DNA of 64,000 nt from Eledone cirrhosa. Lineage: Eukaryota. The notes under the pieces are model-generated. The model saw nothing but the letters and a program-made list of their open reading frames with translations. It was not told where the DNA came from and ran no database searches. This document shows, piece by piece, positions 1,383 through 64,000 of the stretch. Location: the NCBI GenBank assembly GCA_964016885.1, contig OZ024744.1:56916001-56980000 (forward strand), read 5' to 3'. Within the stretch, counting starts at the first letter, position 1; each line of letters opens with the position of its first letter. Both the position numbers and the translations under genes were made by a program.

Positions 1383-2041
<659 letters not shown>

Positions 2042-2042
2042 T

Positions 2043-2131
2043 AGTAAAATTTGATTTGATTTGGTCGAGCTGTTTGGGAATGCAAAAAGAAAATACAGAC
2101 AGAGAGACAAAGAATTTTATATATAGAGAGA
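2043..2131 (-). mobile_element. Helitron-type 5'-end fragment (second family)
   Basis: Minus strand TCTCTCTATATATAAAATTCTTTGTCTCTCTGTC; related fragment at about 11140-11217. Confidence 0.6.
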
Positions 2132-2702
2132 TTAGCTGACATACCCAGCTTCGCTTATGTAAACAGATGATAAGAGAAGACAGGTAGAAGAGAAAATGAC
2201 CATATTGGATGTTTATCTGGTTTACAGTATGAAGCGAGACTGTAGTGTGTGTGTTAGAAAAAAATAAACAGTAAAACATCTTCCAGATACCCCCAGATTC
2301 TTCGTTTTACCGTTCGTGCATAGTATATGAAGATTTTCAGATGTTTCCACTCATGAACAACCTACATATAACTGTCCATGGGTAAAAAGCAATTCTCTTG
2401 TATTCAATTATACAACTTTGAAACTCTGGTCCTGAGCTTTATGTACGGTTATAGCAAAACTGGTTCTAACAGGGAACTGAAGTCTTGAGAATTTGAATGG
2501 CAGCTCAGTAAAGGAAGCGATACGAGGAATCTTGGTAATAAATATATTTTCTCCTTGATGATTGCCTCCAAGAATAGTGATTTCTAGGAGATGGTTCATC
2601 ATCCTCATGGCTCTAAAGTGCGTGCCATTGCATAGACGTATTGGGTTCATGTGTCTCAAAAGGGGATGGAAGTTCCAATATGTTATATTATTTAGATATA
2701 GA
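2132..2702 (-). mobile_element. Helitron remnant encoding the C-terminal PIF1-like helicase part of RepHel
   Basis: LCNGT...LPFKFSRLQFPVRTSFAITVHKAQDQS...FTHGQLYVGCS helicase motifs; 3' end GCGAAGCTGGGTATGTCAG-CTAA (decayed CTAG). Confidence 0.85.
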
Positions 2703-3235
2703 TATATATATATAGATAATTGTAATTAAATGTATGTGTGCATGCACGCGTGTGTGTATGTAAACCAGCGTCTGAATCGTGTGTTTAATTCTCTGTGTAT
2801 CTGATACAGTATTTACGTGAAGATGTGTGTATTTAACTTACTAAGATGGAACATACATAACGAACGCACAAACACACACACTTACAGACACATACACACT
2901 CATATACAAAATGTGACGTCGTCGTCATGTTATAAAATATACATTACTTTTAGTCTATAGTAGAATATTTTAGATAAAATATGTTGTTTTAATCCAAATG
3001 AAAATAAAATTTATATGTTGTCACTCCCAGGTTCTTGTAAAATTTGATTTGATTTACATTGAATGCTTTTAAATTTGATATCAAAACTGCTTAATCTATA
3101 TAACTATTTTCCATCACAAGTAGAAAGTAACTATATGGTTATTATACATATATATATATATATGAGAAATGTGTTGAAACAATTTTAAAGAATTAAATGT
3201 TTTAAGTGTATGTCTTTGATATACATATATATCAT

Positions 3236-4111
<876 letters not shown>

Positions 4112-4140
4112 ATTTGAATGGATACAGTTTAGTTGAAAGG

Positions 4141-4448
4141 AATTTATTGACACGTGTTTCTATAACAGTTACATAACCTGAAAACAGCTGCTATCTATAA
4201 AGTATTAGTTATGCAGACATTCAATATTTCAATGTTATTATTTACTGGTATCGGTAGAGGGTCGGACGCCATGCTTTCCAGCATAGTTACGTCCCTTTAC
4301 GATCCGAGTTCAAATCCCGCCGAGGTTAATTTTGCCTTTCATCCTTACGGGGTCGATAAAATAAAGTACCAGTAATGCACTGGGTAATTGCTGGCCTTGT
4401 GCCAAAAGTAGAAACAATTATTTACTGTCATTTCATCAGAATAATATT
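4141..4448 (-). ncRNA. Type I hammerhead ribozyme motif with a SINE inserted in loop II
   Basis: Minus: AATATTATT-CTGATGA-AATGACAGT...ACTGTTATA-GAAA-CACGTG-TC-AATAAATT; intact core boxes, stems I-III pair. Confidence 0.72.
4248..4416 (+). mobile_element. tRNA-derived SINE (family B), 5'-truncated
   Basis: B-box GAGTTCAAATCCC; matches 34862-35054; 11-bp TSD ATTATTTACTG (4237-4247 / 4417-4427). Confidence 0.88.
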
Positions 4449-4990
4449 ACTGAGGACCTGTTTGGTTTTTATAGAGAATATTAGGAGGGAGGGGTGAAGT
4501 TGTTAGAAGAATAGTTGAGGGAGTGGTTTTTTGATAGCAGTGAGAATTTTCGGTGGCAGTGAGTAATTAGATTCCCATCTGTTGTTTTGACATTTTTATA
4601 GAATATATTATTGGTTATTTTTCTAAATCTATAGAAGGATTAGAGATAGTAAAGATATGCGTGGTTGGTTTTGTGTTTGCACTTAATTAACATTCAGACT
4701 TAAATTTTTCTTTCAAGTGTACGTATCCTTTCGCCCACGCATCACACACAAACATATTTGCACACCTCTACTAAATACATATACTCACATTCACATAGTA
4801 ACATGTTCATACTTACATACATATACACATGCATACATATATATATACACACATGTATTCATGTACATACATACGCGTTCATGTGTATACATTTTTATAC
4901 TCAACTTATCTTTATATACACACGTATAGACACACACATATATACATACATACTCTAGTCTATGTGTATATATATACATATACATATATA

Positions 4991-5032
<42 letters not shown>

Positions 5033-5129
5033 CACTTTAATACATGAATACACTTACATCTAACTATACACATCAAACATATATATATATATTTACTTAT
5101 TTATATACATTTTCACATATATATACATA

Positions 5130-6425
5130 CTTATGGTCGCTTTTAGACACATTCATTATCGCATTTTTGCACCTATTCTCATCAGCATATCTTTCCATTA
5201 TTAGTGTGGTAATTTGAGGTTATTAATATACATATATATGTTGAGAAGAGATTGTTTTTATATTTTTTTAACTAGATTGAGGTTTATATAGTTGGGGGGA
5301 TGTCCCTCTTTTATGTAATATTCGGCTTGTAGTGGAAAAAAAGGGTTTTAGTTCGGTGGCGGCAGAATAATGTTCGTTCAATTCTGTTATTCAGCAATTT
5401 CTTCTTGTGTGTGATTATGTAATAAATCTCAAGATTACACAATTTGCAGAAATTTTGGCTCCTGGAAAAGCTTTGGATTTTAGCTAATTTCTCCCATTTT
5501 AGGGTAAACTTTTGATCGCTATCCCTGAGCGTCCAAGCTTTTTCTGGTAAAGTTGTTACATTTCTTTGGCTCTGGTGTTTTATTGAGTAAGAATGCCTAT
5601 ATAATCGAGATTTAAACGATGTTGCCGTTGATCCCACGTAATACCACTCGTTGCCTCCGGATTTAATGGTACACTTATAAATAATATTTTTTTCCAGGCA
5701 GTTATTGCCGAGGGGGCAGTTGTCAGGATAGGTGCAGTTACAGTTGTGTACGTTGGGTTTTCTCTGGAGTAGTATAGCGGACGAACTTAGGTGTGGTTTA
5801 TTTATGTTCTGTAGTGTATTGTCTACTGTTTTTTTTGTGTTCTTTGTACTTAAGTTTTTAGTGTTTTCGTTTAACCTTCTAGTATTGATCTTTTTTATGT
5901 GCTGTTCAAGGTTTAACGCTGTAGAGTATGACAGTCTTATAGTGGTAGGGTTTAGGATTTTGTGGTATTTGTGTGATGTAGGAAAATGTCTCTTAATTAT
6001 TTTAAAGAAGAGTACTGGTAAATTTGTACTAATGGAACTATTGTATTCGGGGTTATACCATAAGTACTCTTTGCATCGCTTTCTATTAGTTTTGTTTGTT
6101 GGTTTACTGGTGTGCATACTATGGTAGTAAGTGTGGTTTGGTGTTGTGTTATTATATCTACCTATGTGGGATTTATTTTGGGTGTTTTGATTGTTCCCAT
6201 CTATATACTCTATTTTGTTGAGGTAGCCTGCTTTACTAAGGGCGTTATCGTAGTACTCGGCGTGTTCCTTAAATACTTGTATGTTAGAAGATAGACCCGA
6301 GATTCTAAGGGAAATATGTTTAGGGATAGATTTAATTATAGAGATGGGGTGATTAGACCCAACATTTACGTATTTGAGATTTTCATTCAATTTATGAAAC
6401 GGTTTAATCAGACCAGAGTTTAAAT
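5130..6425 (-). mobile_element. Penelope-like element, 5'-truncated (RT thumb + GIY-YIG endonuclease)
   Basis: ORF 5311..~6423: SNHP thumb motif, CNC..CPL..NCL, IIYK...YYVG, C.LC..E, LLN.R.E...CRHR; the N-terminal IY-rich stretch of the called ORF is just (AT)n. Confidence 0.92.
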
Positions 6426-6458
6426 TGAGTATATATATATATATATATGTATAAATTG

Positions 6459-6490
<32 letters not shown>

Positions 6491-6976
6491 AATTGAGTAT
6501 ATATATATAAATTGAGTATATATATATATATATATATATCATATATATATATACATATATACAGGGAGCTCATAGATAGGACAGCATACTGTTTTTCGTG
6601 GGGGGGGGGGGGGGTAAGTTTTTACTCATTTTCGTATTCTAAAAGACCAAAATACAACAAAATGTTTACTCATTGGACGCCGGGAAATGTACTGACAAAA
6701 GCTGTGGAAGCTACAGAAATATTCCATATATTTTTCCAGAGCAATCTTTATTTAAAAATTTTACATTTTACGCTTACAAAATGGCCATAAATTCAAATTT
6801 TGAAAAGAGAGGAAAAGGAACAAGTGAACTATGAACTTGTTATATCTCACTGCCCCACACCTCTCCGCCACCACAATAACGTCTACACTCGCTCCCCACC
6901 ACCATCACATAAATCATTACCCTATCTTCACTAAGACCTGTTGACGAACTGCTAAATCCTTTGTTGAATGTGTGTG

Positions 6977-7007
<31 letters not shown>

Positions 7008-7249
7008 ATATATGTATGTATATATATATCTCAGTGGATGCGGCCAGATTTCAACACAGCAACAGCAACAACACTATTGTCTGTGTTGAATGTGTGTAGG
7101 TATGTATATATATATATATGTGTGTATGTATATATATGTATGTGTATATATCACACACGCGAAGCGAACAAATTTCAAAATTTCAACCCAGCGACTATAA
7201 TAACAGCAACAGCAACAACACCATTGTCTGCAGCAGCAGCAGTAAAATG

Positions 7250-7625
7250 AACAACTACAACGGCAGCAGCAACAACAACAACAACTGCCACCACCATCAC
7301 TGACACTATCCACCACCATCACTGACAATATCCACCACCTTCACTACCACCACAACCATCACTGGTACCATCCACCACCACCACCATCACCACCACCACC
7401 ATAACCATCACTGACACCATCCAAACCATTACCACCACCACCACCACCACCGCCATCACCATCACTGACATCATCCACCACCTTCACCACCATCACCATC
7501 ACTGACATCATCCACCACCTTCACCACCACCACTACCACCACCACCACCACCATCACTGGCACCATCCACCACCACCACCACCATCACCATCACTGACAC
7601 CATCCACCACCACCAACATAACCAG
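7250..7625. repeat. (CAC/ACC)n-rich low-complexity repeat
   Basis: Degenerate CACCAC/CATCACTGACA units. Confidence 0.9.
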
Positions 7626-7904
7626 CGATCAGGCCTTAAAAACAACTATAATAATAATAATACTAAATAACTATTTTGTTCTTGGCACGGGGCAGCGATT
7701 GTCCCAGCGCATTGCTGGAAAAGTCAACAGTTGACATGATTTTGATTTTGTATCAGTACTGACGGTAATATATATATATATATATATATGTGTGAGTGGT
7801 GTGTGTGTTTGTATGCAGGAGTGTTGGTGTGTGAGTGAGTGTGTGTATGAGCTGTGAGTGTCAATAAGTGTTTTTTGGGGTTTTTTTTAATGACCATGCT
7901 GTAA

Positions 7905-10900
7905 AGTGGAGGGGTAGAGAGGGCCCTTGAGTCTAGTAAGACATCCTCTCTAGTGCTGGTGGCACAAATAAAAGCACCCAGTCCATGGCGCTCGTGTTAG
8001 GAAGGGCATCCAACCAGTGTATCAATGCCAAAACGATTATTAGCACAGCAACAAGTACATAGGAACAACAAAATATGAAGACGTCGCATCTCAGAGTTGC
8101 AACACTTAATGTTGGTACTCTCAGAGGTAGATCTGCTGAAATAGCGGAGATGCTGGAGAGAAGGCATGTGGATGTGTGCTGCGTGCAAGAGGTGAGATGG
8201 AGAGGTGCCTCTGCAAGACTAATCGTAGGCAAACATCTTCGCTATAAGCTTTTCTGGATAGGTAAGGATGATGGGTTAGGGGGAGTAGGCATTTTCCTGG
8301 CTGAGAAATGGATCAATAAGACAATAGAGGTAGTTCGAGTTAGTAATCGAATAATTAAGATTAGATTAGTTGTAGGCAGGAGACTACTGACAATCATCTC
8401 TGTCTATGCTCGACAAACAGGCCTAGGCAAAGAAGAGAAAGACTGCTTTTACGAGCAACTTTTACAAACAACTGCAATGACTGAGGACGGAGACATCGTT
8501 ATGCTAGCAGGAGACTTCAATGGTCATGTTGGACAGCTCCAGGATGGTTACACTGGGGTACATGGTGGGCACGGTTACAGCTCAAGAAATGAAGAAGGAG
8601 TGAGACTTCTTGAATTTTGTGATGCAAGTACACTAACCATTTGCAACACTAACTTCCAGAAACCTACCAACCACCTAATAACCTACAAATCTGGCGAGCA
8701 CATAAGACAGATTGACTTCTTACTAGTTAGGCAGCAGGACAGGTAGATAGTGTCTAATAACAAAGCATACCTTGGGGAAGAATGTACCCCACAGCATAGG
8801 TTAGTTGTTAATGATATCTCAGTAAGCAAGAGATGGAATGAGACATGCAGGAAGGTGTGGAGAAGAAAGGTCTGGAAGCTAAAAGACCTTTCACTAAAAT
8901 ACAAATTTAGGTAAGCCCTTCAAGATGTGTATGACGAAAAAGAAGACGATTTAGAGACGTATGACATAGATAATAACTGGAATTTCTTACGTGACAACTT
9001 ACTGCAGGCTTTTGATGAAACTTGTGTCTGGGGCAAAGCTCCAACCAGACAGAGAGTGACCTGGTGGTGGAACAGCACAGTAGATAAGGCCATTAGAGAC
9101 AAAAGACTAGCATGGAAGGCTTGGAAAAAGGGTGGGAGTAAAGAAGGATATACAGCTGCTAAGAGAGAAGCTAGACGTCAGGTGTACTTAGCACGCAAGG
9201 AGGCTAAGAGTAGGAGGTTTGCCAATGTTCTGCGACGGAAAGATCAGAGGCGTGCGGTGTTCCACATTGCAAGGCAGTGTGTCAATGCAAATCAGGATGT
9301 TGTTGGAGATAAATGTGTCCGGGATGATGCCGGTGTATTTAGTGTCACGAATGATCAGAAAAAGGTGGCCTGGAAATATCATTATGAGAGACTGATGAAT
9401 GTGGAGAACGAATGGGAGAGAGAGAAATTACCCTCAGTAGATCCGACAGAGGGACCAGCTATTGAGATTGACGAATATAGGGTCCAAGAGGCGATTAGGG
9501 AAATGAAAAATGGTAAGGCTGCTGGACCATCGGGGATAGTTGCTGAGATGCTGAAGGCATCAGGGGACGTAGGCACTAAACTGGTTGCACACATCATCAA
9601 TCAGGCTATTTATGGTGGTATCATACCCAAAGACTGGTGCAGCAGTATTCTCATAAATTGCTACAAAGGTAAAGGGGATGCTCTGGAGAGGAGCAATTAT
9701 AGGGGTATAAAACTGATGGATCAAGTTATGAAAGTGGCAGAAAGGATATTAACACAACTAATCAGAGAAAGGGTCAAACTAGATGAGATGCAGTTTGGTT
9801 TTGTGCCTAAGAAGAGTACAACAGATGCCCTCTTCTTAGTGAGACAATTACAAGAGAGGTTTTTAGAGTAAAATAAGCCACTATACTTAGCCTTTGTTGA
9901 CCTAGAGAAGGCCTTCGATAGGGTACCCCGATCTGTCATCTTGTGGTACCTAAGGAAACTAGGTGTTGAGGAATGGCTTGTGAGGACAGTGCAAACTTTG
10001 TACAGAGGTACTCTCAGTAAAGTCAGGGAAGGAATGGAGTTTAGTGAGGAATTCCAGATACAAGTAGGAGTACATCAAGGTTCGGTCCTCAGCCTGCTCT
10101 TGTTCATTATAGTCCTCCAAGCCATAACAGAGGAATTTAAGACCGGCTGTCCATGGGAACTTCTCTATGCTGACGATCTGGTACTTATAGCAGAATCAGT
10201 AGAGGAGCTAGAGAATAAATTCTGACTATGGAAACAGCAGTTGGAATCAAGAGGACTGAGAGTGAACCTAGCTAAGACAAAAGTGTTGATGAGTAGAAAA
10301 GAGGACAAAACTCTGATTCCGTCAGGGAAATGGCCATGTTCGATATGCAGAAAAGGAGATGGCATAAATTCTATAAAATGCACACAATGCAGATCCTGGG
10401 TACACAAGAGATGTAGTGGGATAGCAGGTAAACTAACAGGTAGGGAGAAGTACGTATGCAGTAGACGTACAGGGAAATTTGACAGTAGTAGTCGTAATGA
10501 TAAACACATTTATCAAATGCAGGCAGGTGCTATAGAAGTGGTGGATAGCTTCCGGTACGTAGGTGATCAGATTAGCATGGGGGGGGGGGGGCTGTTCCGA
10601 GGCCATAGTATCTAGAATAAGGACGGGTTGGAAGAAGTTTAGGGAGCTGCTTCCTCTGCTGACGAAGAAGGGTTTCTCCCTGCGTACAAAAGGCCGGTTA
10701 TATGATGCCTGTGTGAGGAGCGTGATGCTGCATGGTAGTGAGACATGGGCAGCAACTGCAGAGGATATGCGACGGCTGGAGAGAAATGACGCAAGCATGC
10801 TTTGTTGGATGTGCAATGTCAATGTGTGTGAACGACCCAGCATGAATGTGTTGAGAGGGATAGAATGTAGTGTGCGAGAGAGGAGACTGAGGTGGTATTG

Positions 10901-11140
10901 ACATGTGATGCGCATGGAGGATGACCGATGGGTGAAGAAGTGCCAGGAAATACCAGCTGAAGGAAGACGAGGTAGACCATGAAAAACATGGGAGGAGGTG
11001 GTGAGAACAGACCTCAGATCACTGAAGCTCACGGTGGAGATGACGAAGGACCGTGACAAGTGGAGAGATGCTGTGCTAAATAAGACCCATCCCACCCTTG
11101 CAAGCAGGGAAAAGCGGACGTAAAATGATGATGATGATGA
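7905..11140 (+). mobile_element. Near full-length RTE-clade LINE (APE endonuclease + RT + PHD-like finger), inactivated
   Basis: ATLNVGTL..CCVQEVRW..GDFNGHVG..IDF (APE, 8075-8746); QFGF..DLEKAFD..QG..YADDL (RT); CxxC..CxxC..WVHKRC..C finger; several in-frame stops; (TGA)n tail; 5' boundary approximate. Confidence 0.95.
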
Positions 11141-11227
11141 TTTGGTCGAGCTCTTTGGGAATGCATAAGGAAAAGACAGACCGACAGAGAGACAAAGAAT
11201 TTTATATAGAGAGAGATGTAAATATAG

Positions 11228-11563
11228 ATCATCATCATCATCATCATTTTACCTCTGCTTTTCCCTGCTTGCAAGAGTGGGACGGGAACTGATTCTGGCT
11301 TGATTTCTACAGCTGGATACCCTTCCTAACAACATTTACAGTGAGTGCTGGGTGCTTTTTTGCCGTGGCACCTAAATGCCCACTTTGCAATTGAATGATA
11401 TGGACCCCAGTCCCTATCATCTCATTTCTACAGCTGAGTAAACTGGAGCAATGTGAAATAAAGTGTCTTGCTCAAGGAAACAACACATCACCTGGTCTGA
11501 GAATTGAACTCACAACCTTTCGATTGTAAGGCCAATGCTCTAACCACTAAGCCATGTGCCTCC
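11228..11563 (-). mobile_element. tRNA-derived SINE (family A) with RTE-derived 3' end
   Basis: Homologous to 39407-39699; A/B boxes; 3' end matches the RTE 3' terminus and (TGA)n tail. Confidence 0.9.
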
Positions 11564-11699
11564 ATAGAAATACATAAAACCAATTAATAGATAGAAATAC
11601 ATAAAACCAATTAATTATTGATAGGAACCTGATAAATTTTATACACAAAAATATACAATCAAAGTGAAAAAAAACCCAATCAATTAAGCAATAAGTCCG

Positions 11700-12372
11700 A
11701 CAATTGGTCACATACCACAAGCGGCATCAGAACCTTTTGAGGCAAGCCAACATACTCACAGCATTACCGCAGGTGATGGTGAGGCTAAGGTGCTGAAACA
11801 ACCAAGTACCTTCATGGACATCACCTGACAACTCGGTAAGTCAAGCCGCTAACGGTGACAAGAACTTTGTTGTCAGCAACTCAGCTTCCCCAAACGTCTC
11901 GAATGTCACAGGCTAGAAGAAATGGTTTACCGATAAGTCCCGGTACTTTACAGTCACATTCTGTTCCGCTATGGAAGCAGTAACCCCTACAACTGCGACA
12001 ACATCCAGGATGTGGGAGGGAGCAAAAGAATCATAGACTGTAACGTCTCAGATGAGATATCTACCTCTTACACAGAGACAATGGGTAAGACCATCTGGCT
12101 TCTTCCCATCAATTCTGGATAATCTAGCTGGCTCCAGAACCCAGGGGATCTTTACCCAATCTACAACCCACTTAATGATCAGGTTTAGTTTGGTGTAGTG
12201 AGTGAAGCAACCAACATTCAGGTAGTAAGACAAACCATGAAGGCCTACCACAGTAACATCTCAGTGCCTTACTCACATCAGCTCCCACTGCGAGTGCTAT
12301 GGAGATGTGAGCACATTATAAATGAGGAGACCACTAATGTTGGCTATAAGCATGGCATCAACCTAGTCCCCC
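11700..12372 (-). mobile_element. Degenerate CRE-like retroelement fragment (RLE domain)
   Basis: HGLS..LEP..LSRIDGKKPDG..DVTV.D..KY..PVTFETFG motifs, homologous to the C-terminus of the element at 14101-18950. Confidence 0.85.
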
Positions 12373-13329
12373 AAGAATTTTACATTTTCGAAAAGCAGGC
12401 AACATTTTGAAAATTTATCAGATTGATTATGTATATATGTATATGAATACATATAAAAATGAGAAACAACTACTGCAGCATCCAAAATGTTGGAGGTAGC
12501 AAAAGAGTCACTGACTGTGGCATACACAGGGACAATGGGTAATACCCTGTGAACTTAGTGTACAAGTAGCTGAGTATTTCAGACACATATACATTTAATG
12601 TACATAGCAGGGAGATTCAACGTGACTGTGACAAGGCTGGTACTACCAATTACAAATAAAACTAATTTCTTTCCACACAATAGGACTGAAGCAATATGAA
12701 ATAAAGTGTCTTACTCAAGGACACTGTGCTGCTGGGAATGAAAATTATTGTTATGAGACAAACACCCTAACTACAAAGCTATGGGCCTTCATGATTTTAT
12801 ATAGACTTTATAAAACGATATCAACTGGTGACTCATATGATAAGTGACGTCACATTGGCTGTCTCAATAGTAGGTAACTAGTAATGCCACTACTGTAGTT
12901 ATTTTTCAGTTCTGGTACTTACTATATCAATCTCTTTTTATTGAACCGCTACGTTATGGTACATAAATACAAACATACGACAGGCTTCTGCATTTTCCAC
13001 CTACCAAGGTATTGATAAACCTGAGGCTGCGACAGAAGAAACTTATCCTAGATGCAGTGAAGGGGGACTTAACTTGAAAGCGTGTGTAAATAAATCAATG
13101 GATTTTGTTTAATAGAAAATTATTAAAAACTGTAGGGTTTATAATAGTTTGTTTTCTTTTATCGGGGGAAAAAAAAAATAAGCATCGCTACACTCAGAAG
13201 TAAATAGCGGGTGTCTGAATGTAAAGATGCTCGAGTCTTGTTACGCCAGCAAATGCTACATCTCATTCTACATTAATCATGCTTTTTATTATAAAAGATA
13301 ATTCTTCCGAATAACCATATATCTCACGT

Positions 13330-14100
13330 GGCTGAAAGTACCATTGGTACTAGATCCTATCTCACCTTTCTACATGTACCATGTATAGTTTGCTACTAGT
13401 TCCTATCTCACCTTACTAGGTGTACCATATAGAGTTTGGTACCAGTTCCTATCTCACCTTGCTAGGTGAACCATATATAGTTTAGTACTAGTTCCTATCT
13501 CACCTAGCGAGGTGTACCATATACAGTTTGGTACTAGTTCCTATCTAACTTTGCTAGGTGTACCATATATAGTTTGGTACTAGTTCCTATCTCACCTTGC
13601 TAGGTGTAATATATAAACTAGTTTGGTACTAGTTCTTACCTCACCTTCTACAAGTACCATATATACTAGTTTGGTACTAGTTCCTATTTCACCTTGCAAG
13701 GTGTACTATATATAATTTGATACTAGTTTCTATCTCCCCTTGCTAGGTGTACCATACATAGTTTGTGCTAGTTCCTATGTCACTTTGCTAGGTGTACCAT
13801 ATATACTAACTTGGTACTAGTTGCTATCTCACCTAGCTAGCTGTACCAATTATAGTTTGGTTCTAGTACCTATGCCACCTTGCAAGGTGTACCATATATA
13901 ATTTGATACTAGTTCCTATCTCACCTTGCTAGTGTACCATATATACTTGTTTGGTACTAGTTCTTATCGCACCTTGCTAGGTGTACCATATATAGTGTTG
14001 TACTAGTTCCTATTTCACCTTGCTAGGTATACTATATATACTAGTTTGGTACTAGTTCTTATCGCACCTTGCTAGGTGTACCATATAGAGTTCGGTACTA
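13330..14100 (+). repeat. 46/49-bp satellite array, block 1
   Basis: Unit TAGTTCCTATCTCACCTTGCTAGGTGTACCATATA(CTA)TAGTTTGGTAC-like; period 46 (e.g. 13535 to 13581). Confidence 0.97.
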
Positions 14101-14339
14101 TAAACATTTAATTTTATTCACAGTTGTATAAATAACATTACAAATCGTTTGCAATTCTTTCAGAATAAACAGAGCATATAAATAAATTTACAGTAGAATA
14201 ACAAAACAAATATGTTTTAAATATATACATAAATAACATTACAAATACTTAGATTACATTATAAATAGCTCGCAATTCTTTCAGAAAGATATATTCTTTT
14301 AATGTTACAATATTAAAGAAAATGTAAAGGAAGGGGTGA

Positions 14340-17300
14340 ACAACGGAGCCAACACCAGAGCAAAAGACAGCAACGTCGTGAGGAGTACTGGGCAACCTCT
14401 CTAATGATTTCTGAGGCAAACCAGCACACTCGTTGCCTCAGGTGATGGCGAGGCTGTTGCACTGAAACAGCCAAGCGCCCTCACGAGATTCGCCAGTTAC
14501 CTCTATTAGGCGAGACAAGGCCTCTCGACGAGGGGACCACAGGGTAAGACCGTCAGGTCTTTTGCCGTCACTTCTGGACACCCCAGTTTGTTCTAAGACT
14601 GAGGGGATATTCGCCCGGGCCAAAGCTCTCTTCAGAATGAGGTTTAGCTCCGTGTGACGCGCAAAGCGGCCGACATTCAGGTGGCAAGAAAGACCGTGGA
14701 GGACTGTAGAGTCGAGGAGTTTGCCACATCGGCACCTCAAACCCATGCAGACATCAGCTCCCACTCTGAGGGCGATGGAGACACGAAGTTTGTCCAGGCT
14801 GAGTAGGCCACCAACGTTGGCCAGGGGTAGGGCATCAACCCAGTCGCCTGAGTATTTGGCGCTGGCAGATAGTGAGCGGCACCTTGCAAACTGATCTGAC
14901 TGGACGAAGAGGGAGTCGAAGGTGGCCTTCAAACTTATGCTGTCCCAAGTTCTCTGACTTCGACTGTCCTCCACCTTCTCAGGAGGAGACAAGCCCAACT
15001 TGCTCCATTGCTGGAGAGCTTCACCAAACTCCCTGTTGGAACTAGTCCATGTTGGAGAGGGGAGGAGGCTGCTCACCAGTGTGGAGCAGGCGTGGGTGGA
15101 GGAAAGGAAGCAGGGGAGAGAGAGGGACAAACACTTACGAAGACCAAGACCTGCAAATCGCTTGGGCAACGCAGCCTGATCGCGGGACTCTGGTGAGAGT
15201 CTAACATTGACCAGGCACTCGAGTCTCTCGAAGATTAGGTCGTCGAAGCGTTGGAGGCAGGACGGAAATCTGTGAGAGGGGCTGACCCTGAGCAGATACA
15301 GAAGCTTAGGAATGGATAGGTAGTTCCTGAGTATGAAGAAACCTTGATGGGGTTCGATAACTTCGATATTCCTCAGCAGCTGCTCAAGGCCAACCATCTT
15401 CGATTGGAAGATTGACTCGAAGGCCAGGTCTGTGACTGGGGCTCCTAAGGAGCACCAAACCAACGGGGGAGGGACCGCGATAGAAGCGAAGGACTCTGCA
15501 AACAGGTTGATTAGCTGTTGGTGTTGAGAAGCCGGGTGGTTGAGGATCGAGAGCTCACATTTGGAGCTATTGATCTGGAGACCCCGGTGGCCAAGCTCTT
15601 CAACCATCTTGTTGGCAGTAGCGAGACCCATATCCGGAGTTCCCCCCCAAACAGGCTTCATCGAGGTACCAGACATTGAGATCCAACTCAACCCCCATCT
15701 TGGTGACATCATCAATGCCCAGTGCAAACAGAGCGGGCCCAAGTGGGTCATCCTGTGGGACTCCTGAGGCAGATTTGATGATTGGGTCACCGAAAGAGAG
15801 GTAGGAGGGCTCTCGATAAGCCTGCCAAGCAATGTAGTAGAGTTGTGGGACCCTTTTTCTTACTGAGCTGAGGACGATGTCGCGGCTGACGGAGTTGAAT
15901 GCATTCTTGAGATTCAAGTTTGAGGATGACCTTGGGGGATGAGGAGGGCAAGTTGGTAAATGCTCTGGCAGCATGGACAGCAGCCTCACATCCCAACTTG
16001 GTACCCACCCCCAGCTGGATGGGGGAAAATTCCTCCGCCAGTGAGTTGGAGACCAACAGCAAACATGCCTTTGCAGTGAGGCGGAGAAGGGTGCAGCCAA
16101 CCGCAATGGGGCGCAGGGCCCCGTTGGGCTTGGTGAGACCAAATAGCTTCGCACCAAAAAACAGTGGGCGGATGACCGGGAGAACGTTCAGTGAAAAGAA
16201 CTGATTCACAAACTGAGTCAGACTCTCCAAGAGCTCGAGTCCGGCATCACCGGCCGATAAGGAGATACCATCCTTGAGGTGTTGAGGACGAAGGCTGTCA
16301 ATTCCCGCGCCTGACCCAGCGGGGAAGGATGAAATCGCCTTTCTGATGATATCGGTGGTGTAAACCGGTCTCAAGTATTCTGGTGGTTCGGGCCAGTGCA
16401 GCTGATCATCTGGGGGTGCCGATGGGTGCTTCTCTTTCAGACGTTCAAGAGAATCAGAGTTGCACGGAGCGAGGGAGGACAGAGAAGAGAGGAGAAGAAC
16501 AGCCCCTTTAATGTCAAATTTGCTGAATTTGGCATTGACCGCTCGCTTGAGGCCTACCGGTTGTTTGTTGGTGGACACCGAGCTTGATGTCTAACTGAGA
16601 TGAGACGTGGTTGGGGTGGTCTCAAACAGCTGGAACTGCCGCTTGAGAGAAGACGTGAGGGAACCCGAATTCGTATTGTGCACGTGAAGAGAGATGAGAG
16701 GAAACAAAAACAATTTCTGCCAGTCAGATCTATTGTTGGATGAGCAAATGTTTTTCAATAAATTAGAGAGGGCACGTGCAAAGCTATTCCGAGCTCCCTT
16801 AGGGATCCGGTTAATGAACTTTGATTTGGATAAGCCCTGAAGGGCTGTGGCAAAATCCTTGGTAGAGAGTTGGTCATCGAAGTGTGGGGCATCCCCACGG
16901 AATACATTGGAGCTGAAATAGCACCGATTACAGGTCCAGTGTTGAAGCCTTTCGGCTTGAGCTTTGGTGATGCCGACACAGCTTCTGTGGTAGCTTGCGT
17001 GGCATAGGTGACATTTAATTGTCTTTAAGTATCAGCTAGTGCAGGCACAGAGACCGCAATCAGGTGGTGAGCTGGCAGCAGCCGGCAGTAGAGGGCCAGC
17101 GTTAGAATTCGGTGGAGGGACTGAGTCAGTAAAGGAGGCAACAGTGGTTCTAACGGTGGGACTAGAGCGGAGGTTGGGTGGTGTAAGGGTGGTGTGGTTG
17201 GCCAGGTTGGATTCATCCGGGTTGGAATCTGCCGTGAAGAGGAGGAGGGGTAGGTGGGGGCAAGTTAGCTCCTCTCGTGCGTGCCGAAGTTGGTGGAGAA

Positions 17301-17460
17301 TGAGAGGTCGAGGGCTGACCGGTTGTCACATAGTTGTTCCACCAAGCAGGTCTCTTGGTCATTCGATGCATGCCACCGCCACCTAGAGTGGACTAGCTTA
17401 AAGTGGTGGCAACTTTAGCAATCGGCAATCGGCAGTGATAGTTCGGGTTGAACGAATATA
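14340..17460 (-). pseudogene. Disrupted ORF of the CRE-like element
   Basis: Pieced from ORFs 15787..16578, 15600..16157 and 14438..15832 plus upstream frames; stops, frameshifts and an internal deletion within the RLE. Confidence 0.85.
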
Positions 17461-18637
17461 GAGGTGGGCTGTGCACGAGGACGAAGTAAGGGGTGAGCAA
17501 GGGGAGAAGGGGGAGAATATTATGCATGGAGAGGAGTGTGATCATGTGAGAGGCAGGTAAATACAGTGGGAGAGAAAGAGCACTGAACATGCAAAGAAAA
17601 GGAAAATAAAAACGCTAGAAGTACAAAATCTAAGGCTGTGAGTTTGTGTCATATTTCACATGGGTAAATCCACAGTAAAAACCGAAATTGTGAGTTTGGG
17701 TAAAAAAAATACACATGGGCAAGACTTCAGTAAAATCAAAACCTGAATGATAGTGATACAAGATGTTTACAATTACAGAGTGATTACAAACTGGTCCTGA
17801 ATTCTATCAAATGGTCAAAGCTTCTAATTCTGTGAAATAGAATGGAAGTATGGATTGACCTTTCAGTCACACCTGACTATAAATAGATTCCGGTTATTTC
17901 AAGAGGGAGATGGGATGGTGCCATGTGTTATCTCTTCTTGTGAAGCTAGTGGCGGTTCCTCGCTATTTATAATTATTTATTTTAATTTTATTTTAGGGGG
18001 GGGGGGGGGTTAAAAATTTTAAGTGTACATTAAGGAGGAATGTATAATTGTGTGATACAATTGCTCCAGGTTGGTTCCATGCGTTGTTGCCACAACCATT
18101 CCTTTTAAATTTTTAATTTTCTTTTTTTCTTTCTTCTGAAGATCTGTTATTCCTCTCCGTAGATTGTAAATGGTAAAATCTGTTCGAATGTCCCTGGGAG
18201 TTAAGTGATCCAACGGAATGGTAAAATCCAGTTCCTTGAAGAATATTTTGAAGTTTTCTCAGACAAAGTATACACTCATGCGAAAAAAGGGAAAAGTTGA
18301 AAATGTTTACCTTGTTTGGTGTCGAATTTGTACACACGTTTGTTTTCCTTTTGGCTTGTAATTGTTGTTCATCGTGGCAGAGGTTGTAGTAGTGTCTTAT
18401 TACTCTGGCGTTTCACTATATATATATTGTGTTGACTCTGGATAGAAAATATATTAACTTTTCGCACCTTTGAGTGCTTTGAGACACCCTTAAACAATTC
18501 GATTGGTATTTGCTATATTGTGGCTACAACTTCGATTTATACCTATAATTATTGTTATTCTCTTAGTTTCATGTATTTCATTGATAACGTGTTAGTTATT
18601 TTTTGTTCATAAACGCTAGTTGAGAGCTTTATTGTGT

Positions 18638-18950
18638 TAGTACCAAACTAGTATATATAGTACACCTAGCAAGGTGAGATAGGAACTAGTACCAAACTAG
18701 TATATATAGTACACCTAGCAAGGTGAGATAGGAACTAGTACCAAACTAGTATATATAGTACACCTAGCAAGGAGAGATAGGAACTAGTACCAAACTAGTA
18801 TATATAGTACACCTAGCAAGGTGAGATAGGAACTAGTACCAAACTAGTATATATAGTACACCTAGCAAGGTGAGATAGGAACTAGTACCAAACTAGTATA
18901 TATAGTACACCTAGCAAGGTGAGATAGGAACTAGTACCAAACTATATATG
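18638..18950 (-). repeat. Inverted, homogeneous block of six 49-bp satellite units
   Basis: Units start at 18638, 18687, 18736, 18785, 18834, 18883; identical apart from one substitution seen; reverse complement of the main array. Confidence 0.97.
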
Positions 18951-19742
18951 GTTTGGTACTAGCTCCTGTCTTACCTTGCTAGGTGTACTATATATACTAG
19001 TTTGGTTTCCTATGCCACCTTGCTAGTTGTACCAGAGATCGTTTGGTACTAGTACCTATCTCACCTTGCTAGGTGTACCATATATATCTTTTGGTACTAG
19101 TTCCTATAACACCTTGTTAGGTGTACTATATACTAGTTTGGTACTAGTTCTTATCTCACTTTCTAGGTGTACCATATATAATTTGGTACTAGTACCTATG
19201 CCACCTTGCTAGGTGTACCATATATAATTGCTACTAGTTCCTATCTCACCTTGCTAGGTGTACTGTATATAGTTTGGTACTAGATCCTATCTTACCTTGC
19301 TAGGTGTACCACATATAATTTGGTAGCAGTTCCTATCCCATGTTGCTAGCTGTACTAAAGGTCGTTTGGTACTAGTTCCTATGTCACCTTGCTGGGTGTA
19401 CCATATATAGTTTGGTACTTGTTCCTATCTCACCTTGCAGAGGTGTACCATATATAGTTTTGTACTAGTCCCTATCTTCCCTTCCTAGGTGTACCAAATA
19501 TAGTTTTGTACTAGCTCCTATCTCACCTTCCTAGGTGTACCCTATATAGTTTTGTACTAGTTTCTATCTCACCTTGCTAGGTGTACTATATATAGTTTGG
19601 TACTAGTTTTGTACTAGTCCCTATCTCACCTTCCTAGGTGTACCAAATATAGTTTTTTTACTAGCACCTATCTCACCGTGCTTGTTGTACTAGAGATCGT
19701 TTGCTACTAGTTCCTATCTCACCTTGCTAGGTGTACAATATA
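18951..19742 (+). repeat. 46/49-bp satellite array, block 2
   Basis: Same unit, diverged copies. Confidence 0.97.
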
Positions 19743-20400
19743 TGTATAATGGTGGCGAAGATTCGAAACCGAATCTGAGCTTTCCCGCCTCTGGGACAGG
19801 CCGTGGTAAGTTGTTTACGCTCAACAGACTAACCCCTTGGGAGATGCTAAACACAGGTCAGAGGTCTTTACGCCTGACAAAAATATCTATCCTTCTAACT
19901 TCAACCCTTATAAATACAGGGGTTGTTTACGCCCCGGGAGAAAAAGAAGTGATACACAGACAAGACAAGTCGCATTTACAAGCTCTCGTCACGAAAAACC
20001 AGTCTGTCTCTAATTTCTCACCCACCTGGCTGATCGCTTACTACTACTACTAAAACAAGCAAATATACTGATACGCACACACACATTCATATTAAGTTCA
20101 CACTGATTGCATTTCCACATGCACCATTTCTGTTTACACATATTGTATCTTTCGGATACAGTACAAATTATATTATAATCGTATTCTGTGATACTTGTAT
20201 TTACGTGGCTCGAAGAGCCACCAAATTATTGTACGAATATTTCGTGTTATTGATTTTATCATTCAATATTCAAATTGAATATTGTTATAATAAAATAAAC
20301 ATTGAAACAACACAATCCTGGTATTATTCTTTGCATTGAAACCATCATACCAACAGTTCCATCTATCCACTATCCGTTACAATCACAAATATTCGTTACA
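19743..20400 (+). mobile_element. Solo LTR inserted in the satellite
   Basis: TGTA...TACA termini, TATAAATA near 19908, AATAAA near 20288, satellite resumes on both sides; TSD imperfect (TATA/TAAG). Confidence 0.72.
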
Positions 20401-22472
20401 TAAGGTATGCTACTAGTTCCTGTCTCAGCTTACTAGCTGTACCATATATACTAGTTTGGTACTAGTTCATATATCACATTGCAAGGTGTACCTTATATAG
20501 TTTTGGTACTAGTTCCTATCTCACCGAGCTAGGTGTAGTATATAAACTAGTTTGGTACTAGTTCTCATCTCACCTTCTAGGTGTACCATATGTATTTTGG
20601 TACTAGTTCCATTGCTAGGTCTAGTATATGAGTTAATTTAGTACTAGTTCTTATTGCACCTTGCTAGGTGTACCATATATAGTTTGGTACTAGTTCCTAT
20701 CTCACCTTCTAGGTGTACCATATATACTTGTTTGGTACTAGTTCCTTTCTCACCTTGTTACGTGTACTATATATAGTTTGGTACTAGTTCCTATCCCACC
20801 TTGCTAGGTGTACCATATATAATTTGGTACTAGTTCCTGTCTCACCTTGCTAGGTGTACCATATATACTAGTTTGGTACTATTTCATATCTCACCTTCGA
20901 AGGTGTACCATATATAGTTTGGTACTAGTTCCTATCTCACCTTGCTAGATGTACTATATATACTAGCTTGGTACTAGTTCTTGTCTCACCTTACTAGCTA
21001 TACCATATATACTAGTTTGGTATTAGTTCATATCTTACATTGCAAGGTGTACCATATATACTAGCTTGGTACTAGTTCCTATCTCACCTAGCTAGCTGTA
21101 CTAGATCCTATCTCACATTGCTAGGTGTACCATATATAGTTTGGTACTAGTTCCTATCACACCTTCTTTGTTGTACTAGAGATAGTTTGGTACAAGTACC
21201 TATGCAAACTTGCTAGCTGAACCATATATAATTTGGTACTAGATCCTATCTCACCTTGCTAGGTGTACTATATATATATACTTGTTTGGTACTAGTTCCT
21301 ATCTCACCTTGCTAGGTGTAATATATAAACTAGATTGGTACTAATTCTTATCTCACCTTCTATGTGTACCATATATACTAGTTTGGAACTATTTTCTATC
21401 TAACCTTTCTAGGTGTACTATATATAGTTTGGTACTAGTTCTTATCTCACCTTGCTTGTTGTACCAGAAATCGTTTGGTACAAGTACCTATGCAACCTTG
21501 CTAGCTGTACCATATATAATTTGGTACTAGTTCCTATCTCACCTTGCTAGGTGTACCATATATAGTTTGATACTAGTTCCTATCTTACCTTATAAGGTGT
21601 ACCATATATAGTTTTGTACTAGTTCCTATCTCACCTTGCTTGGTGTAATATATAAACTAGTTTGGTACTAGTTCTTATCTTACCTTGCTAGGTGTACCAT
21701 ATATAGTTTGGTACTAGGTCCTGTCTCACCCTATTAGCTGTACCAATTATAGTTTGGGACTAGTTCCTATCTCACATTGCAAGGTGTACCATATATACTA
21801 GTTTGGTACTAGTTCTTATCGCACCTTGCTAGTTGCACCATATATCGTTTGGTACTAGTTTCTATCTCACCTTGCTAGGTGTACCATATATAGTTTGGTA
21901 CTAGTTCCTATCTCACCTTGCTAGGTGTACCATACATAGTTTGTGCTAGTTCCTATCTCACCTTGCTCAGTGTACAATATATAGTTTGCTACCAGTTCTT
22001 GTCTCAGCTTACTAGCTTTACCATATATAGTTTGGTACTAGTTCCTATCTCACCTAACTAGCTGTACCAATTATAGTTTGGTACTAGTTCCTGTGTCACC
22101 TTGCTAGGTGTAGTATATAACTAGTTTGGTACTACTTCTCATCTCATCTTGCTAAGTGTACTATATATAGTTTGGTACTAGTTCCTAGCTCACCTTGCCA
22201 GGTGAACCATATATTATTTGGTACTAGTTCCTATATATGTTACACTTAGAAGGTGAGATAAGAAATAGTACCAAACTAGTTTATATATTGCACCTAACAA
22301 GTTGAGATAGGAAACTATATATTGTACCATGTTCCTATCTCACCTTGCTTGGTGTACTATATATAGTTTGGTGCTAGTTCCTATCTCACCTTGCTAGGTG
22401 TACTATATATGCTTGTTTGGTACTAGTTCTTATCGCATCTTGCTAGGGGTACCATATAGAGTTTGGTACTAG
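20401..22472 (+). repeat. 46/49-bp satellite array, block 3 (small inversion near 22238-22330)
   Basis: Same unit. Confidence 0.97.
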
Positions 22473-24358
22473 TTTAACGAAGGGTATAATTGATGGTGTT
22501 AGAATAACAAAAATAGCTGAATTACTTTATATATAAAAAGGTTTACTTCACTTCAGTCAAAAAGAACAATAAACAAGTTACCAGGAGTTGTGAAAGTTGA
22601 CAGTGTTATTTTGTTGTTGGTTCATGAGGCTGGTGTAGTCTGAAACCAGGAGAGAGAGAGAGAGTAATGGTCTGTGGTTGACTGTAGACCTCTGCAGCCT
22701 GTAGTAGGCGGAGAATGTTTACATAGCTTGTAATATAGAGTACGTCCCCGATCTCTCTGTGTAAAACGTGGGAAAATATGGGCTTTATATACCTGTCGCT
22801 TTCTGTCTCCCACCTTGAGGGATCGCCCACGCATGAACCTGTCCACACCGAAACTGATGGTGACCTAGAATTTGACTTTTATGTGTCACCCAAGGTTCAA
22901 GGCGTGGACAGATTTTGCTACATTAGTTCGCTACCCAGATAGATGCAGGAGCAGCGATTGATTATAAAAGGAGTAGCGAAATCTGAATCTAGAAGCGTGT
23001 CCCAAAACACACCAAATGTGGGTACTGTGCCTGCACTTCGAGTGTAGAGAAATTTGGAGAGAAAAAAAAATATCGTATAACTGTGTATGCATGTGTGTGT
23101 GTAACATTTAGAAGAAACTGTAAATATACAAAGTTGTGATCATGTATTTCGAACTGTTGTGTATGGATGGCTGAACGTTCAGGGTTGCAGTATTGGATTA
23201 TGATATGACAATACAGAGGACTATTACATGTAAGATGCTTTTCCAGTGAGTCGAGGTTTACGCTATGACATGAGTGTGTGCAATTTTGAGTTGCGTGCCT
23301 GAATGAGTCCAAGCAAGTAGTACCCATGGGTTGTTTCTCATGTGTTTAATAGCTGTTGCCGAACCTCGACCAGTTGAAAAGTGATCTCGCAGAATCCCAA
23401 CCGAATCAAGAACATACCATAGACAACATGTTGGTGTGTGACAAAGAAAATGATGTGTGTTTGATGCAAAACGTGTATGTTCATACAGGCATATAATACA
23501 GTAAGATAAATAAATAAAAAATGAAAATAAACGTTCATATATAAATTGTAAAAAAAAATTTTATTTTTATTTTTATATAATTGTTCTTTACAAAAAGTTC
23601 AGTTTTCTCTTCTTTATGTGATCGTTATCTTGCTAGGAAGCTAGTAGTATTGTCTGTTGTTGTTGTTGTAGATTACGAAGCACGTGGTGAAGTGTTTGGT
23701 AATGAATCGAAACATCAAAGCGAAGTCACTGTAAATATTCCGTAGAATGATAGTTTGGTGAATAATTTGAAAGAGTGAAGTTTTATCATATCGTAGAATA
23801 TAGATGAGAAGCTTGGTAAGAGAAAGTTGTTGATGTTGGCAATGGAAGCCATGACCAGAAAAAAAAATTGCCTGTTTTCTTTTTTTAAAATACCACTTTG
23901 TATTTTTTTTTTTTATCACGTCGGGGTCACCAACGTAACGAAGAAGTAATTATAAGTGATTGTTAGAATGATATAACATTAATAGGTTATTTATTATATA
24001 TGTAAAAAGGTTTACTTCACTTCAGTCAAAAAGAACAATACACAAGTTACCACGAGTTGCGAAGGTTGACAGTGTTATTTTGTTGTTGGTTCATGAGGCT
24101 GGTGTAGTCTGAAACCAGGAGAGAGAGAGAGAGTAATGGTCCTTAGACCTCTGCAGCCTGTAGTAGGTGGTGAATCTTTACATAGCTTGTAATATAGAGT
24201 ACAGCTCTGATCTCTGTGTAAAACGTGGGAAAATATAGGCTTTATATACCTGTCTCCCTGCCTCGAGGGATTGCCCACGCATGAACCTGTCCACACCAAA
24301 AAGGATGGTGATCTAGAATTTGACTTTTAGGTTCAAGGCATGGACAGATTTCGCTACA
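22473..24358 (-). mobile_element. Non-autonomous LTR retroelement (two LTRs, tRNA-Trp PBS)
   Basis: LTRs 23934-24358 and 22473-22922; PBS TGGTGACCCCGACGTGAT at 23932-23915; 4-bp TSD CTAG; TATA box and AATAAA on minus; no recognisable gag/pol. Confidence 0.85.
23915..23932 (-). promoter_or_regulatory. Primer-binding site complementary to the tRNA-Trp 3' end
   Basis: Plus strand ATCACGTCGGGGTCACCA equals the 3' 18 nt of eukaryotic tRNA-Trp including CCA, 1 nt from the LTR. Confidence 0.88.
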
Positions 24359-62677: not shown

Positions 62678-64000
62678 ATCATCATCAACGTTTAACGTCC
62701 GTGTTCCACGCTTGCATGGGTTTGGACGGGCGTAGTCCCACTTGAGGCAAGAGTGATTGTCTTGCTCGCATAGGACTGTCTGGCAGGTTTTCTACAGTTG
62801 GATGCCCTTCCTAACACCAACCACATTTACAGTGTGGGTCTGGGAGGTTTTTACCGTGTTGCCTACACGGCCACATTACAGCGTGGACTGTGTGTTTTTT
62901 TGTCGTGACACCTACACGATCTCATTTGTTTCGGCCTCGATGGCGCGGCACCAACATAACTTTACATAGAACGGGGTGGTGTGGATGGGGTGGGGTTGGT
63001 GGTGGTGGGACGGGGTGTATTTTGTTAGAGATGCCTACTGGCTGGAGTAGGTTTTACTATATATTTAGGTAAGGCGGGTCTTCTCTGTTACTGAGTACCG
63101 CCAAAGGTCTCGGTCCAGTGACATTGTCTTGGAGAGGTGTAAGTGTGTGATGTCGGAGTTTATCAGCTCGTCCCAGGTTTTTCTAGGTCTGCCTATTCCG
63201 TGACTACCGTCTATCTTTATTGCCCTGCACTTTGTTATACAGCTATCGACTTTCATGCGCATCACGTGTCCATACCAACGTAGCCTTCTCTCGAGTAAAC
63301 AACATCTGATCCCTCTTATCTCTAATTTTTTCCTTAGTTCGTTTATGCTTTGCCGTTCACGTATATTACTGTTACACATCCAGCGGAGCATGCAAGCTTC
63401 GTTCCTCTCTAGTCTGCGTATATCCTCTGCACACAATGCCCAGGTCTCACTGCCATGCAGCATTGCTGTTCGTATGCAGGCATGGTACAACCTGCCTTTC
63501 ATTTTTAGGGAGAACCCTTTAGCAGCTAATAGTGGTATAAGCTCTCTGAACTTTTTCCAACCAGTTCTGACTCTAGCTACAGTACTTTCAGAGCACCCTC
63601 CCCCACTGCTGATTTTATCGCCCAGGTAACGGAAGCTGTCCACTATTTCTATAGAACCCTCTGCGCAATTGAAAGAGCTAGTAGCTTGTGGGCACTTGCT
63701 GCTACTTATTGCACCAGAGCACCGGCCACATGTAAAATCTATGTTCTTAGTTAGCTTACCTGTGATCCCACTACATCTTTTATGCACCCATACTTTGCAT
63801 TTAGGACATAAAATGGAGTTTCTACCTACGCCTTTCCTACACACCGAGCACGACCATTTCCCAGAAGGGAACGCCGCCTTGTTTTCTTTCCTACAAACTA
63901 GTACTTTGGTCTTAGCCAGATTAATTTTAAGTCCTTTTGACTCTAGGCCGTGCTTCCATGTTTGGAATTTCTTCTCTAGCTCGGCCATTGATTCCGCTAT
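62678..64000 (-). mobile_element. RTE LINE 3' part with open C-terminal ORF (63065..>63988) and probable 3' UTR
   Basis: GLKINLAKTK, intact C4HC3 finger, FRYLG, MLHGSETW, RRLRWYGHVMR, GRPRKTW; (TGA)n tail at 62678. Confidence 0.93.

Follow-up and report, generated by a model that had tools for sequence, protein, structure and literature searches.

A decayed non-LTR retrotransposon with a restriction-like endonuclease (RLE), found in a 64,000-nucleotide stretch of Eledone cirrhosa DNA (the window), carries a genuine PHD zinc finger at positions 16921..17058, in frame with its reverse transcriptase (RT). Protein comparisons indicate that PHD-RT-RLE is a real, conserved architecture that marks one clade of CRE-like elements. 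On balance, this PHD finger is likely a basic module that binds nucleic acid, DNA or RNA, and not a histone reader.

There is work under way to engineer RLE retrotransposons for inserting genes, and target choice in these elements is set by the N-terminal domains. The PHD clade and a sister type that possesses the histone-reading residues form a natural paired test of the modularity of the N-terminal slot and of chromatin reading versus nucleic-acid reading, and intact natural proteins are available for such testing. According to excerpts of a 2014 survey, no LINE PHD had been functionally studied (PMC4120745).

A PHD finger fused to the reverse transcriptase

The minus-strand translation of 17058-16921 has the spacing C-x2-C-x11-C-x2-C-x4-H-x2-C-x15-C-x2-C, with an aromatic residue two before Cys7, as expected of a C4HC3 PHD finger. 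With the stop codon entered as X, the segment matched Pfam PF00628 over positions 1-47 of its 47 at 28.8 bits (E 1.3e-6; curated cut-off 24 bits), and the score fell to 23.7 bits, just below the cut-off, when the segment sat inside a 242-aa stretch. The intact relatives P0002-P0005 matched the same profile at 26.9-32.8 bits. The C4HC3 pattern occurred in none of 30 block-shuffled windows, as against two occurrences in the real window, of which the second is the PHD of another LINE. When the 413 aa from PHD to RT were modelled with AlphaFold, the PHD had a pLDDT of 89-95, and the Foldseek matches of the modelled domain were PHD fingers with weak E-values (best-cited, the AL1 PHD 5y20: probability 1.0, rmsd 1.2 A, E only 0.038 with the 413-aa model). 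The domain is thus predicted by the model to adopt the cross-brace PHD fold.

A preliminary description of this DNA, made from its letters, had called a PHD finger here, and its quoted translation was reproduced exactly; the profile search bears out the call. It had also proposed that the PHD is fused in frame to the RT at the N-terminus of the ORF. This holds as well: a single minus-strand frame, 17154-15916, contains the PHD, the RIPKGAR motif and the first RT motifs, with just two stops, and intact relatives with PHD, RT and RLE in a single ORF exist. On the other hand, the possible C2H2 remnant that it placed at 17360-17440 was not recovered, as the three minus frames of 17200-17700 contained no C2H2-like pattern.

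The element is a dead, ordinary insertion of an R2-like/CRE-like retrotransposon (Table 1). The tblastn matches of intact relatives cover 17073-14516. About 80 codons are absent past the PD motif, where tblastn skips from about residue 845-858 to residue 924 of P0005, and the loss of these RLE codons means that this copy is dead. Two ATGs that could serve as the start, at 17371 and 17362, are in a different frame from the PHD ORF; we therefore infer a frameshift, and the start codon is only a candidate. Close intact relatives have 11-23 aa ahead of the PHD.

Table 1. Features of the element and its flanks (positions in the window)
Feature	Position	Strand	Basis and remarks
Decayed CRE-like RLE non-LTR retrotransposon, probably full-length, about 3.86 kb	14119..17980	-	tblastn, depth, 12-bp direct repeat
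Candidate target-site duplication, 5' copy	17981..17992	-	same 12-mer as 3' copy; coincides with depth drop
Low-complexity S/T/P-rich N-terminal stretch	17059..17371	-	sequence
PHD finger (C4HC3), basic type without cage Trp	16921..17058	-	translation, Pfam, alignments, model; internal stop 17034-17032
Conserved helical N-terminal extension opening with RIPKGAR motif	16315..16809	-	frame, comparison, model; stop 16593-16591
Reverse transcriptase core	15600..16314	-	tblastn, profile match; frameshifts near 15915 and 15640
CCHC knuckle and restriction-like endonuclease	14438..14734	-	tblastn
AT-rich 3' UTR, deepest-covered part	14119..14437	-	depth
Candidate target-site duplication, 3' copy, 12 bp, AT-only	14107..14118	-	12-mer occurs just twice in the window
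46-bp satellite block adjoining 3' end (context, not target sequence)	13344..14100		repeat analysis
Satellite resuming about 650 bp past 5' end	18638..19743		repeat analysis

The element belongs to a high-copy family. Summed contig depth in the public runs X1 and X2, which together are one sample, climbed towards the 3' end from about 2,000 (PHD) to 12,600 (RLE) and 62,336 (3' UTR bin 14170-14486), as compared to about 5-6 for exact unique contigs; such sums are not copy numbers, and tandem repeats may be undercounted in them. The greatest depth in the 3' UTR is as expected from 5'-truncated copies. Depth was high up to the bin ending at 17973 and roughly tenfold lower in the next bin, which was partly skipped as a repeat. 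At 17032, nearly all of the depth (1728/1728 in X1, 338.5/352 in X2) carried a letter other than that of the stop; other copies thus differ at this position, which makes the PHD stop private to this copy. At the other end, a joint at 14232-14330 connects the 3' UTR to the element in another copy. The 3' UTR bin was about 5 times as deep as the RLE bin, which could reflect many short truncated copies or a SINE with the same tail.

The PHD-bearing relatives form one clade

Two protein searches with the 413-aa query, in which 120 of 129 and 150 of 5,123 matches were listed, provided 263 distinct relatives; the query included the PHD and so enriches for PHD-bearing matches. From the 264 proteins, 52 without a usable RIPK anchor were dropped; 162 entered a short tree, 99 a long tree and 36 an IQ-TREE check. 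The best relatives among the matches listed, P0002-P0005, are intact proteins of 953-980 aa encoded by a single ORF, with 40-43% identity, a PHD and RVT_1. RVT_1 was present in all 34 relatives scanned. PHD and RVT_1 also occur together in Atlas clusters of 201 and 97 members, with a share of 36-55%.

Among the matches listed, the N-termini of the 162 proteins, this copy included, comprised 29 with a basic PHD (type B), 12 with an acidic PHD (type W), 31 with C2H2, 41 with C2HC and 49 with another module or nothing recognized. The two PHD types were told apart manually on the PHD sequences themselves, which leaves the clade-based counts as the only independent ones. In a tree built on the region from RIPK through RLE, and hence without the PHD, one clade among the 99 proteins held 14 of the 15 full-length type-B proteins (FastTree 0.999; SH-aLRT 99 in the IQ-TREE check on 36 of these rows). 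All 14 clade members possess the RLE motif. One type-B protein, P0019, fell outside the clade in the long trees. In the 300-aa short tree this copy grouped with P0002-P0005 at 0.998, and type B was split into several groups on a weak backbone. Type W was scattered across C2H2 and RFX lineages.

The place of the PHD in the protein also separated the two types. Measured from the end of the module, the median distance to RIPK was 38 aa for type B (n=29), close to that of C2H2 (41 aa, n=31), as compared to 55 aa for C2HC (n=41) and 76 aa for type W (n=12). Among the matches listed, none of 30 type-B proteins had another finger upstream or downstream of the PHD, and a C2H2 followed the PHD in 5 of 12 type-W proteins. 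These data suggest that the type-B PHD replaces the usual finger while the type-W PHD, lying further upstream, is added to it.

The slot is also filled by RFX in P0259 and by SAP in P0054. Further domains were seen in several relatives (P0006, P0031, P0040, P0072, P0062, P0054 and P0259): a C-terminal ubiquitin hydrolase (UCH, 4/34 scanned), an N-terminal OTU protease, SAP and RFX. Pattern matches in other relatives point to an unnamed C2HC or Cys-rich module.

Histone-reading residues and surface charge

The four best solved sequence matches of the PHD were chains of BPTF, Cfp1 and EBS. Readers of H3K4me3 require an invariant cage Trp and often an acidic residue that takes up Arg2, whereas reading of unmodified H3K4 requires an acidic cluster before Cys1 (PMC3241642, excerpts). 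We mapped the cage position, two before the His ligand, by alignment to BPTF and Cfp1. Trp and the acid were present in all five alignments shown; this copy has Ser and His at those positions. In the clade plus this copy, Trp occurred in one of 15 proteins, as did Asp or Glu at the Arg2-binding position after Cys3. Before Cys1 this copy has a single Asp, and two or more acids were found in 2 of 12 clade members. The net charge of the PHD in the clade plus this copy ranged from +3 to +10 (median +6.5). For type W, the cage Trp was found in 11 of 12 and the median charge was -3, a count that is partly circular. The preliminary description had inferred a histone-reader-type domain; with Trp and the Arg2 acid each in one of 15 and a basic domain, this inference is not supported.

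An Arg/Lys patch ahead of Cys3 is conserved in type B. These PHDs carry Lys five before Cys3 in 22 of 24 and Arg or Lys six before it in 83%; the residue two before Cys3 is hydrophobic, mostly Ile or Val. They also share a helix motif, L-T-R/K-x-Q-A-x2-L, in which Gln is present in 20 of 24. In this copy, Leu occupies the nearly invariant Lys position and Tyr the Arg position. A protein search for host-family copies that cover the PHD returned just P0137, which is without the PHD. Given these substitutions and the lack of a host-family PHD protein in that search, the loop of this copy may be decayed or divergent.

Possible roles of the PHD finger

The absence of the histone-reading residues together with the positive charge suggests that the PHD likely grips DNA or RNA. 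This reading is supported by the matches of other slot occupants to families that bind DNA (RFX in P0259, SAP in P0054). There are precedents: the BAZ1A PHD binds DNA and is without the cage and acidic residues (PMC5636791, excerpts), and the cross-brace finger of piggyBac binds DNA sequence-specifically (PMC5861402, excerpts). In two other PHDs, however, a basic pair alone gave no DNA binding (PMC5636791, excerpts), and the basic patch could instead be a nuclear localization signal (NLS).

We propose that the clade descends from an ancestor that had captured a PHD, its sequence being nearest to the Cfp1, BPTF, EBS and Alfin-type readers, and that this PHD may then have lost its cage and gained a basic surface. 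The surface would hold target DNA, or the RNA of the element itself, during RLE nicking and RT priming. The outcome would be at most a loose preference for AT-rich sites, with no strict site specificity.

It is possible, and we put it forward tentatively, that CRE-like elements captured PHDs at least twice: in one clade as a DNA or RNA module that replaced the finger, and in other lineages as an acidic, Trp-bearing H3K4me reader placed before a C2H2. If so, the N-terminal slot (C2H2, C2HC, RFX, SAP, PHD) would be a natural plug-in targeting module, and type W would represent RLE retrotransposons that read chromatin.

Another possibility is that the clade PHD is itself a chromatin reader, recognizing the H3 tail in its unmodified form or some non-canonical mark, possibly along with nucleosomal DNA, and biasing insertion towards a chromatin state. 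This agrees with the PHD fold, with the H3K4me readers being the nearest solved sequences, with the Ile or Val that mostly occupies the position two before Cys3, and with the location of this copy within a repeat-rich block. The same role has been suggested for the PHDs of CR1 and L2 (PMC4120745, excerpts), and binding of the H3 N-terminus can proceed through backbone carbonyls, which is invisible to sequence (PMC3241642, excerpts). Nevertheless, we consider it rather unlikely for the clade, as the cage Trp, the Arg2-pocket acid and the acidic cluster are nearly all missing and a net positive PHD would face a histone that is itself basic.

Alternatively, the PHD could serve protein contacts, in tethering to a host factor or in dimer or RNP assembly, with the basic patch as an NLS. 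The exposed, conserved helix could serve as a surface for protein contact, an NLS overlaps the cross-brace finger of piggyBac (PMC5861402, excerpts), and PHDs bind non-histone proteins as well (PMC3241642, excerpts). We regard this explanation as unlikely. The slot otherwise holds C2H2, C2HC, RFX and SAP, families known to bind nucleic acids (for C2HC this role is inferred), which favors binding of DNA or RNA.

The setting of the insertion bears on a more specific proposal, namely that the PHD steers the family into the 46-bp satellite. At its 3' end the element comes to within some 20 bp of the array edge, both flanks contain satellite, and the preliminary description had suggested targeting to it. 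However, the candidate target-site duplication, which is 6 bp away from the edge of the array, is AT-rich and not satellite sequence. A duplication of that length was obtained in 11 of 1000 shuffles and in 0 of 607 AT-rich windows, the zones having been picked after the match was seen. The DNA on the 5' side is non-satellite for about 650 bp. The depth of the element (about 2,000-12,600) was at least 50-fold that of the satellite (about 10-40), although such depth does not give copy number and may be too low for tandem repeats. The array is also interrupted by unrelated inserts (19744-20410 and 22475-24357), and outside the satellite, at 11736-12248, there is a CRE-like piece from a different family (63.5% DNA identity). 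These observations do not support targeting to the satellite, which we judge very improbable; accumulation in a tolerant region would explain the setting better.

Least probable of all, and largely refuted, is the idea that the PHD has no function and came along as a passenger, or that a piece of a host gene was fused by accident. This copy is broken, but at least 14 intact full-length proteins retain the PHD at the same place, with conserved surface residues, and on end branches the RT regions of these proteins differ by about 0.3-0.8 changes per site.

Some further features of the flanks were recorded, in a host genome that is AT-rich and rich in microsatellites. The block at 18638-18949 consists of 6.4 copies of a 49-bp satellite variant that are 98% alike and inverted with respect to the remaining array, which is about 70-85% alike; it is a recent local amplification. 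The 1.9-kb satellite insert at 22475-24357 has direct terminal repeats of about 440 bp (84% identity) and is without a long ORF; it is an LTR-like non-autonomous element. The fragment at 11736-12248 (minus strand) is the RLE 3' part of a second CRE-like family, with 41% protein identity to P0004/P0005, and another short related piece lies near 12466-12518.

Comparison with known retroelements

Like the CRE clade (SLACS, CZAR, CRE1/2, MoTeR, FoTeR), the intact relatives have a single ORF with RT and a C-terminal CCHC and RLE, and one relative, P0019, is automatically named a SLACS protein by NCBI. The RLE motif fits the published SLACS/CRE pattern (PMC12857005, excerpts) but with one residue more between PD and D: none of 14 clade members matched CCHC-RH-E-PD-D at the published PD-to-D distance of 12-14, while all 14 did at 12-16, the actual spacing being 15. 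The candidate 12-bp target-site duplication was accompanied by no clear poly(A) tail. Members of CRE, as described, carry one or two zinc-finger motifs and insert into spliced-leader genes or telomeres (PMC12278014, PMC12857005, excerpts). In contrast, the present element has a lone PHD in the place of the zinc finger and is high-copy, with no sign of a spliced-leader or telomere target. We classify it as CRE-like from its architecture and RLE motif, a term that does not imply proven membership of CRE.

R2 structures (PDB 9nl3, 9dou, 9nl2, 8gh6) were the best solved relatives of the family profile, from RT to RLE (E 2.5e-30). The N-terminal region of R2 is its DNA-recognition part (PMC13188248, excerpts). 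Unlike R2, whose clade is defined by a zinc finger and Myb at the N-terminus and a 28S rDNA target, the clade proteins scanned had no Myb or zinc-finger match, and the flanks here are AT-rich and satellite.

PHD fingers are known in CR1/L2 LINEs and in the Chlamys Penelope-like elements (PMC4120745, PMC8557442, excerpts). As in those elements, the PHD here is an accessory domain of a retroelement, and in some L2/CR1 groups it is likewise N-terminal in a single ORF. Those elements have APE or GIY-YIG endonucleases, whereas the present one has an RLE, with the PHD in the zinc-finger position. The BAZ1A PHD and the cysteine-rich domain of piggyBac are similar in being cross-brace fingers, and both use basic residues to bind DNA. 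The lysines of BAZ1A, as far as its excerpts go, are in the C-terminal part of its PHD while the main patch here is before Cys3; we consider these domains functional analogs and claim homology for the fold alone.

Variable N-termini of RLE elements are already known (PMC4640811, PMC13580325, PMC13188248, excerpts). In a 2026 survey of R2 architectures PHD is listed zero times (PMC13188248, excerpts), and excerpts of PMC9977147, PMC9004415 and PMC5408684 contained nothing relevant. We found no account of a PHD in CRE elements, or in RLE elements at large, in a literature search whose scope ended short of Repbase Reports, subscription papers and supplements, where a prior description is quite possible.

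Other PHD fingers in the window

Two more PHDs lie inside LINE RT-like frames, at 63719-63850 (minus strand; Pfam 31.1 bits) and at about 10337-10470 (plus strand; 30.7 bits). In both, a Trp is retained ahead of the His ligand region and the domain looks basic, and both are presumably placed between RT motifs 6 and 7. APE and RT matches were obtained for the element at 8063-10615, which we take to be RTE-like. Compared to one APE-type LINE PHD in the window, the PHD described here has 12 of 34 positions identical, mostly ligands.
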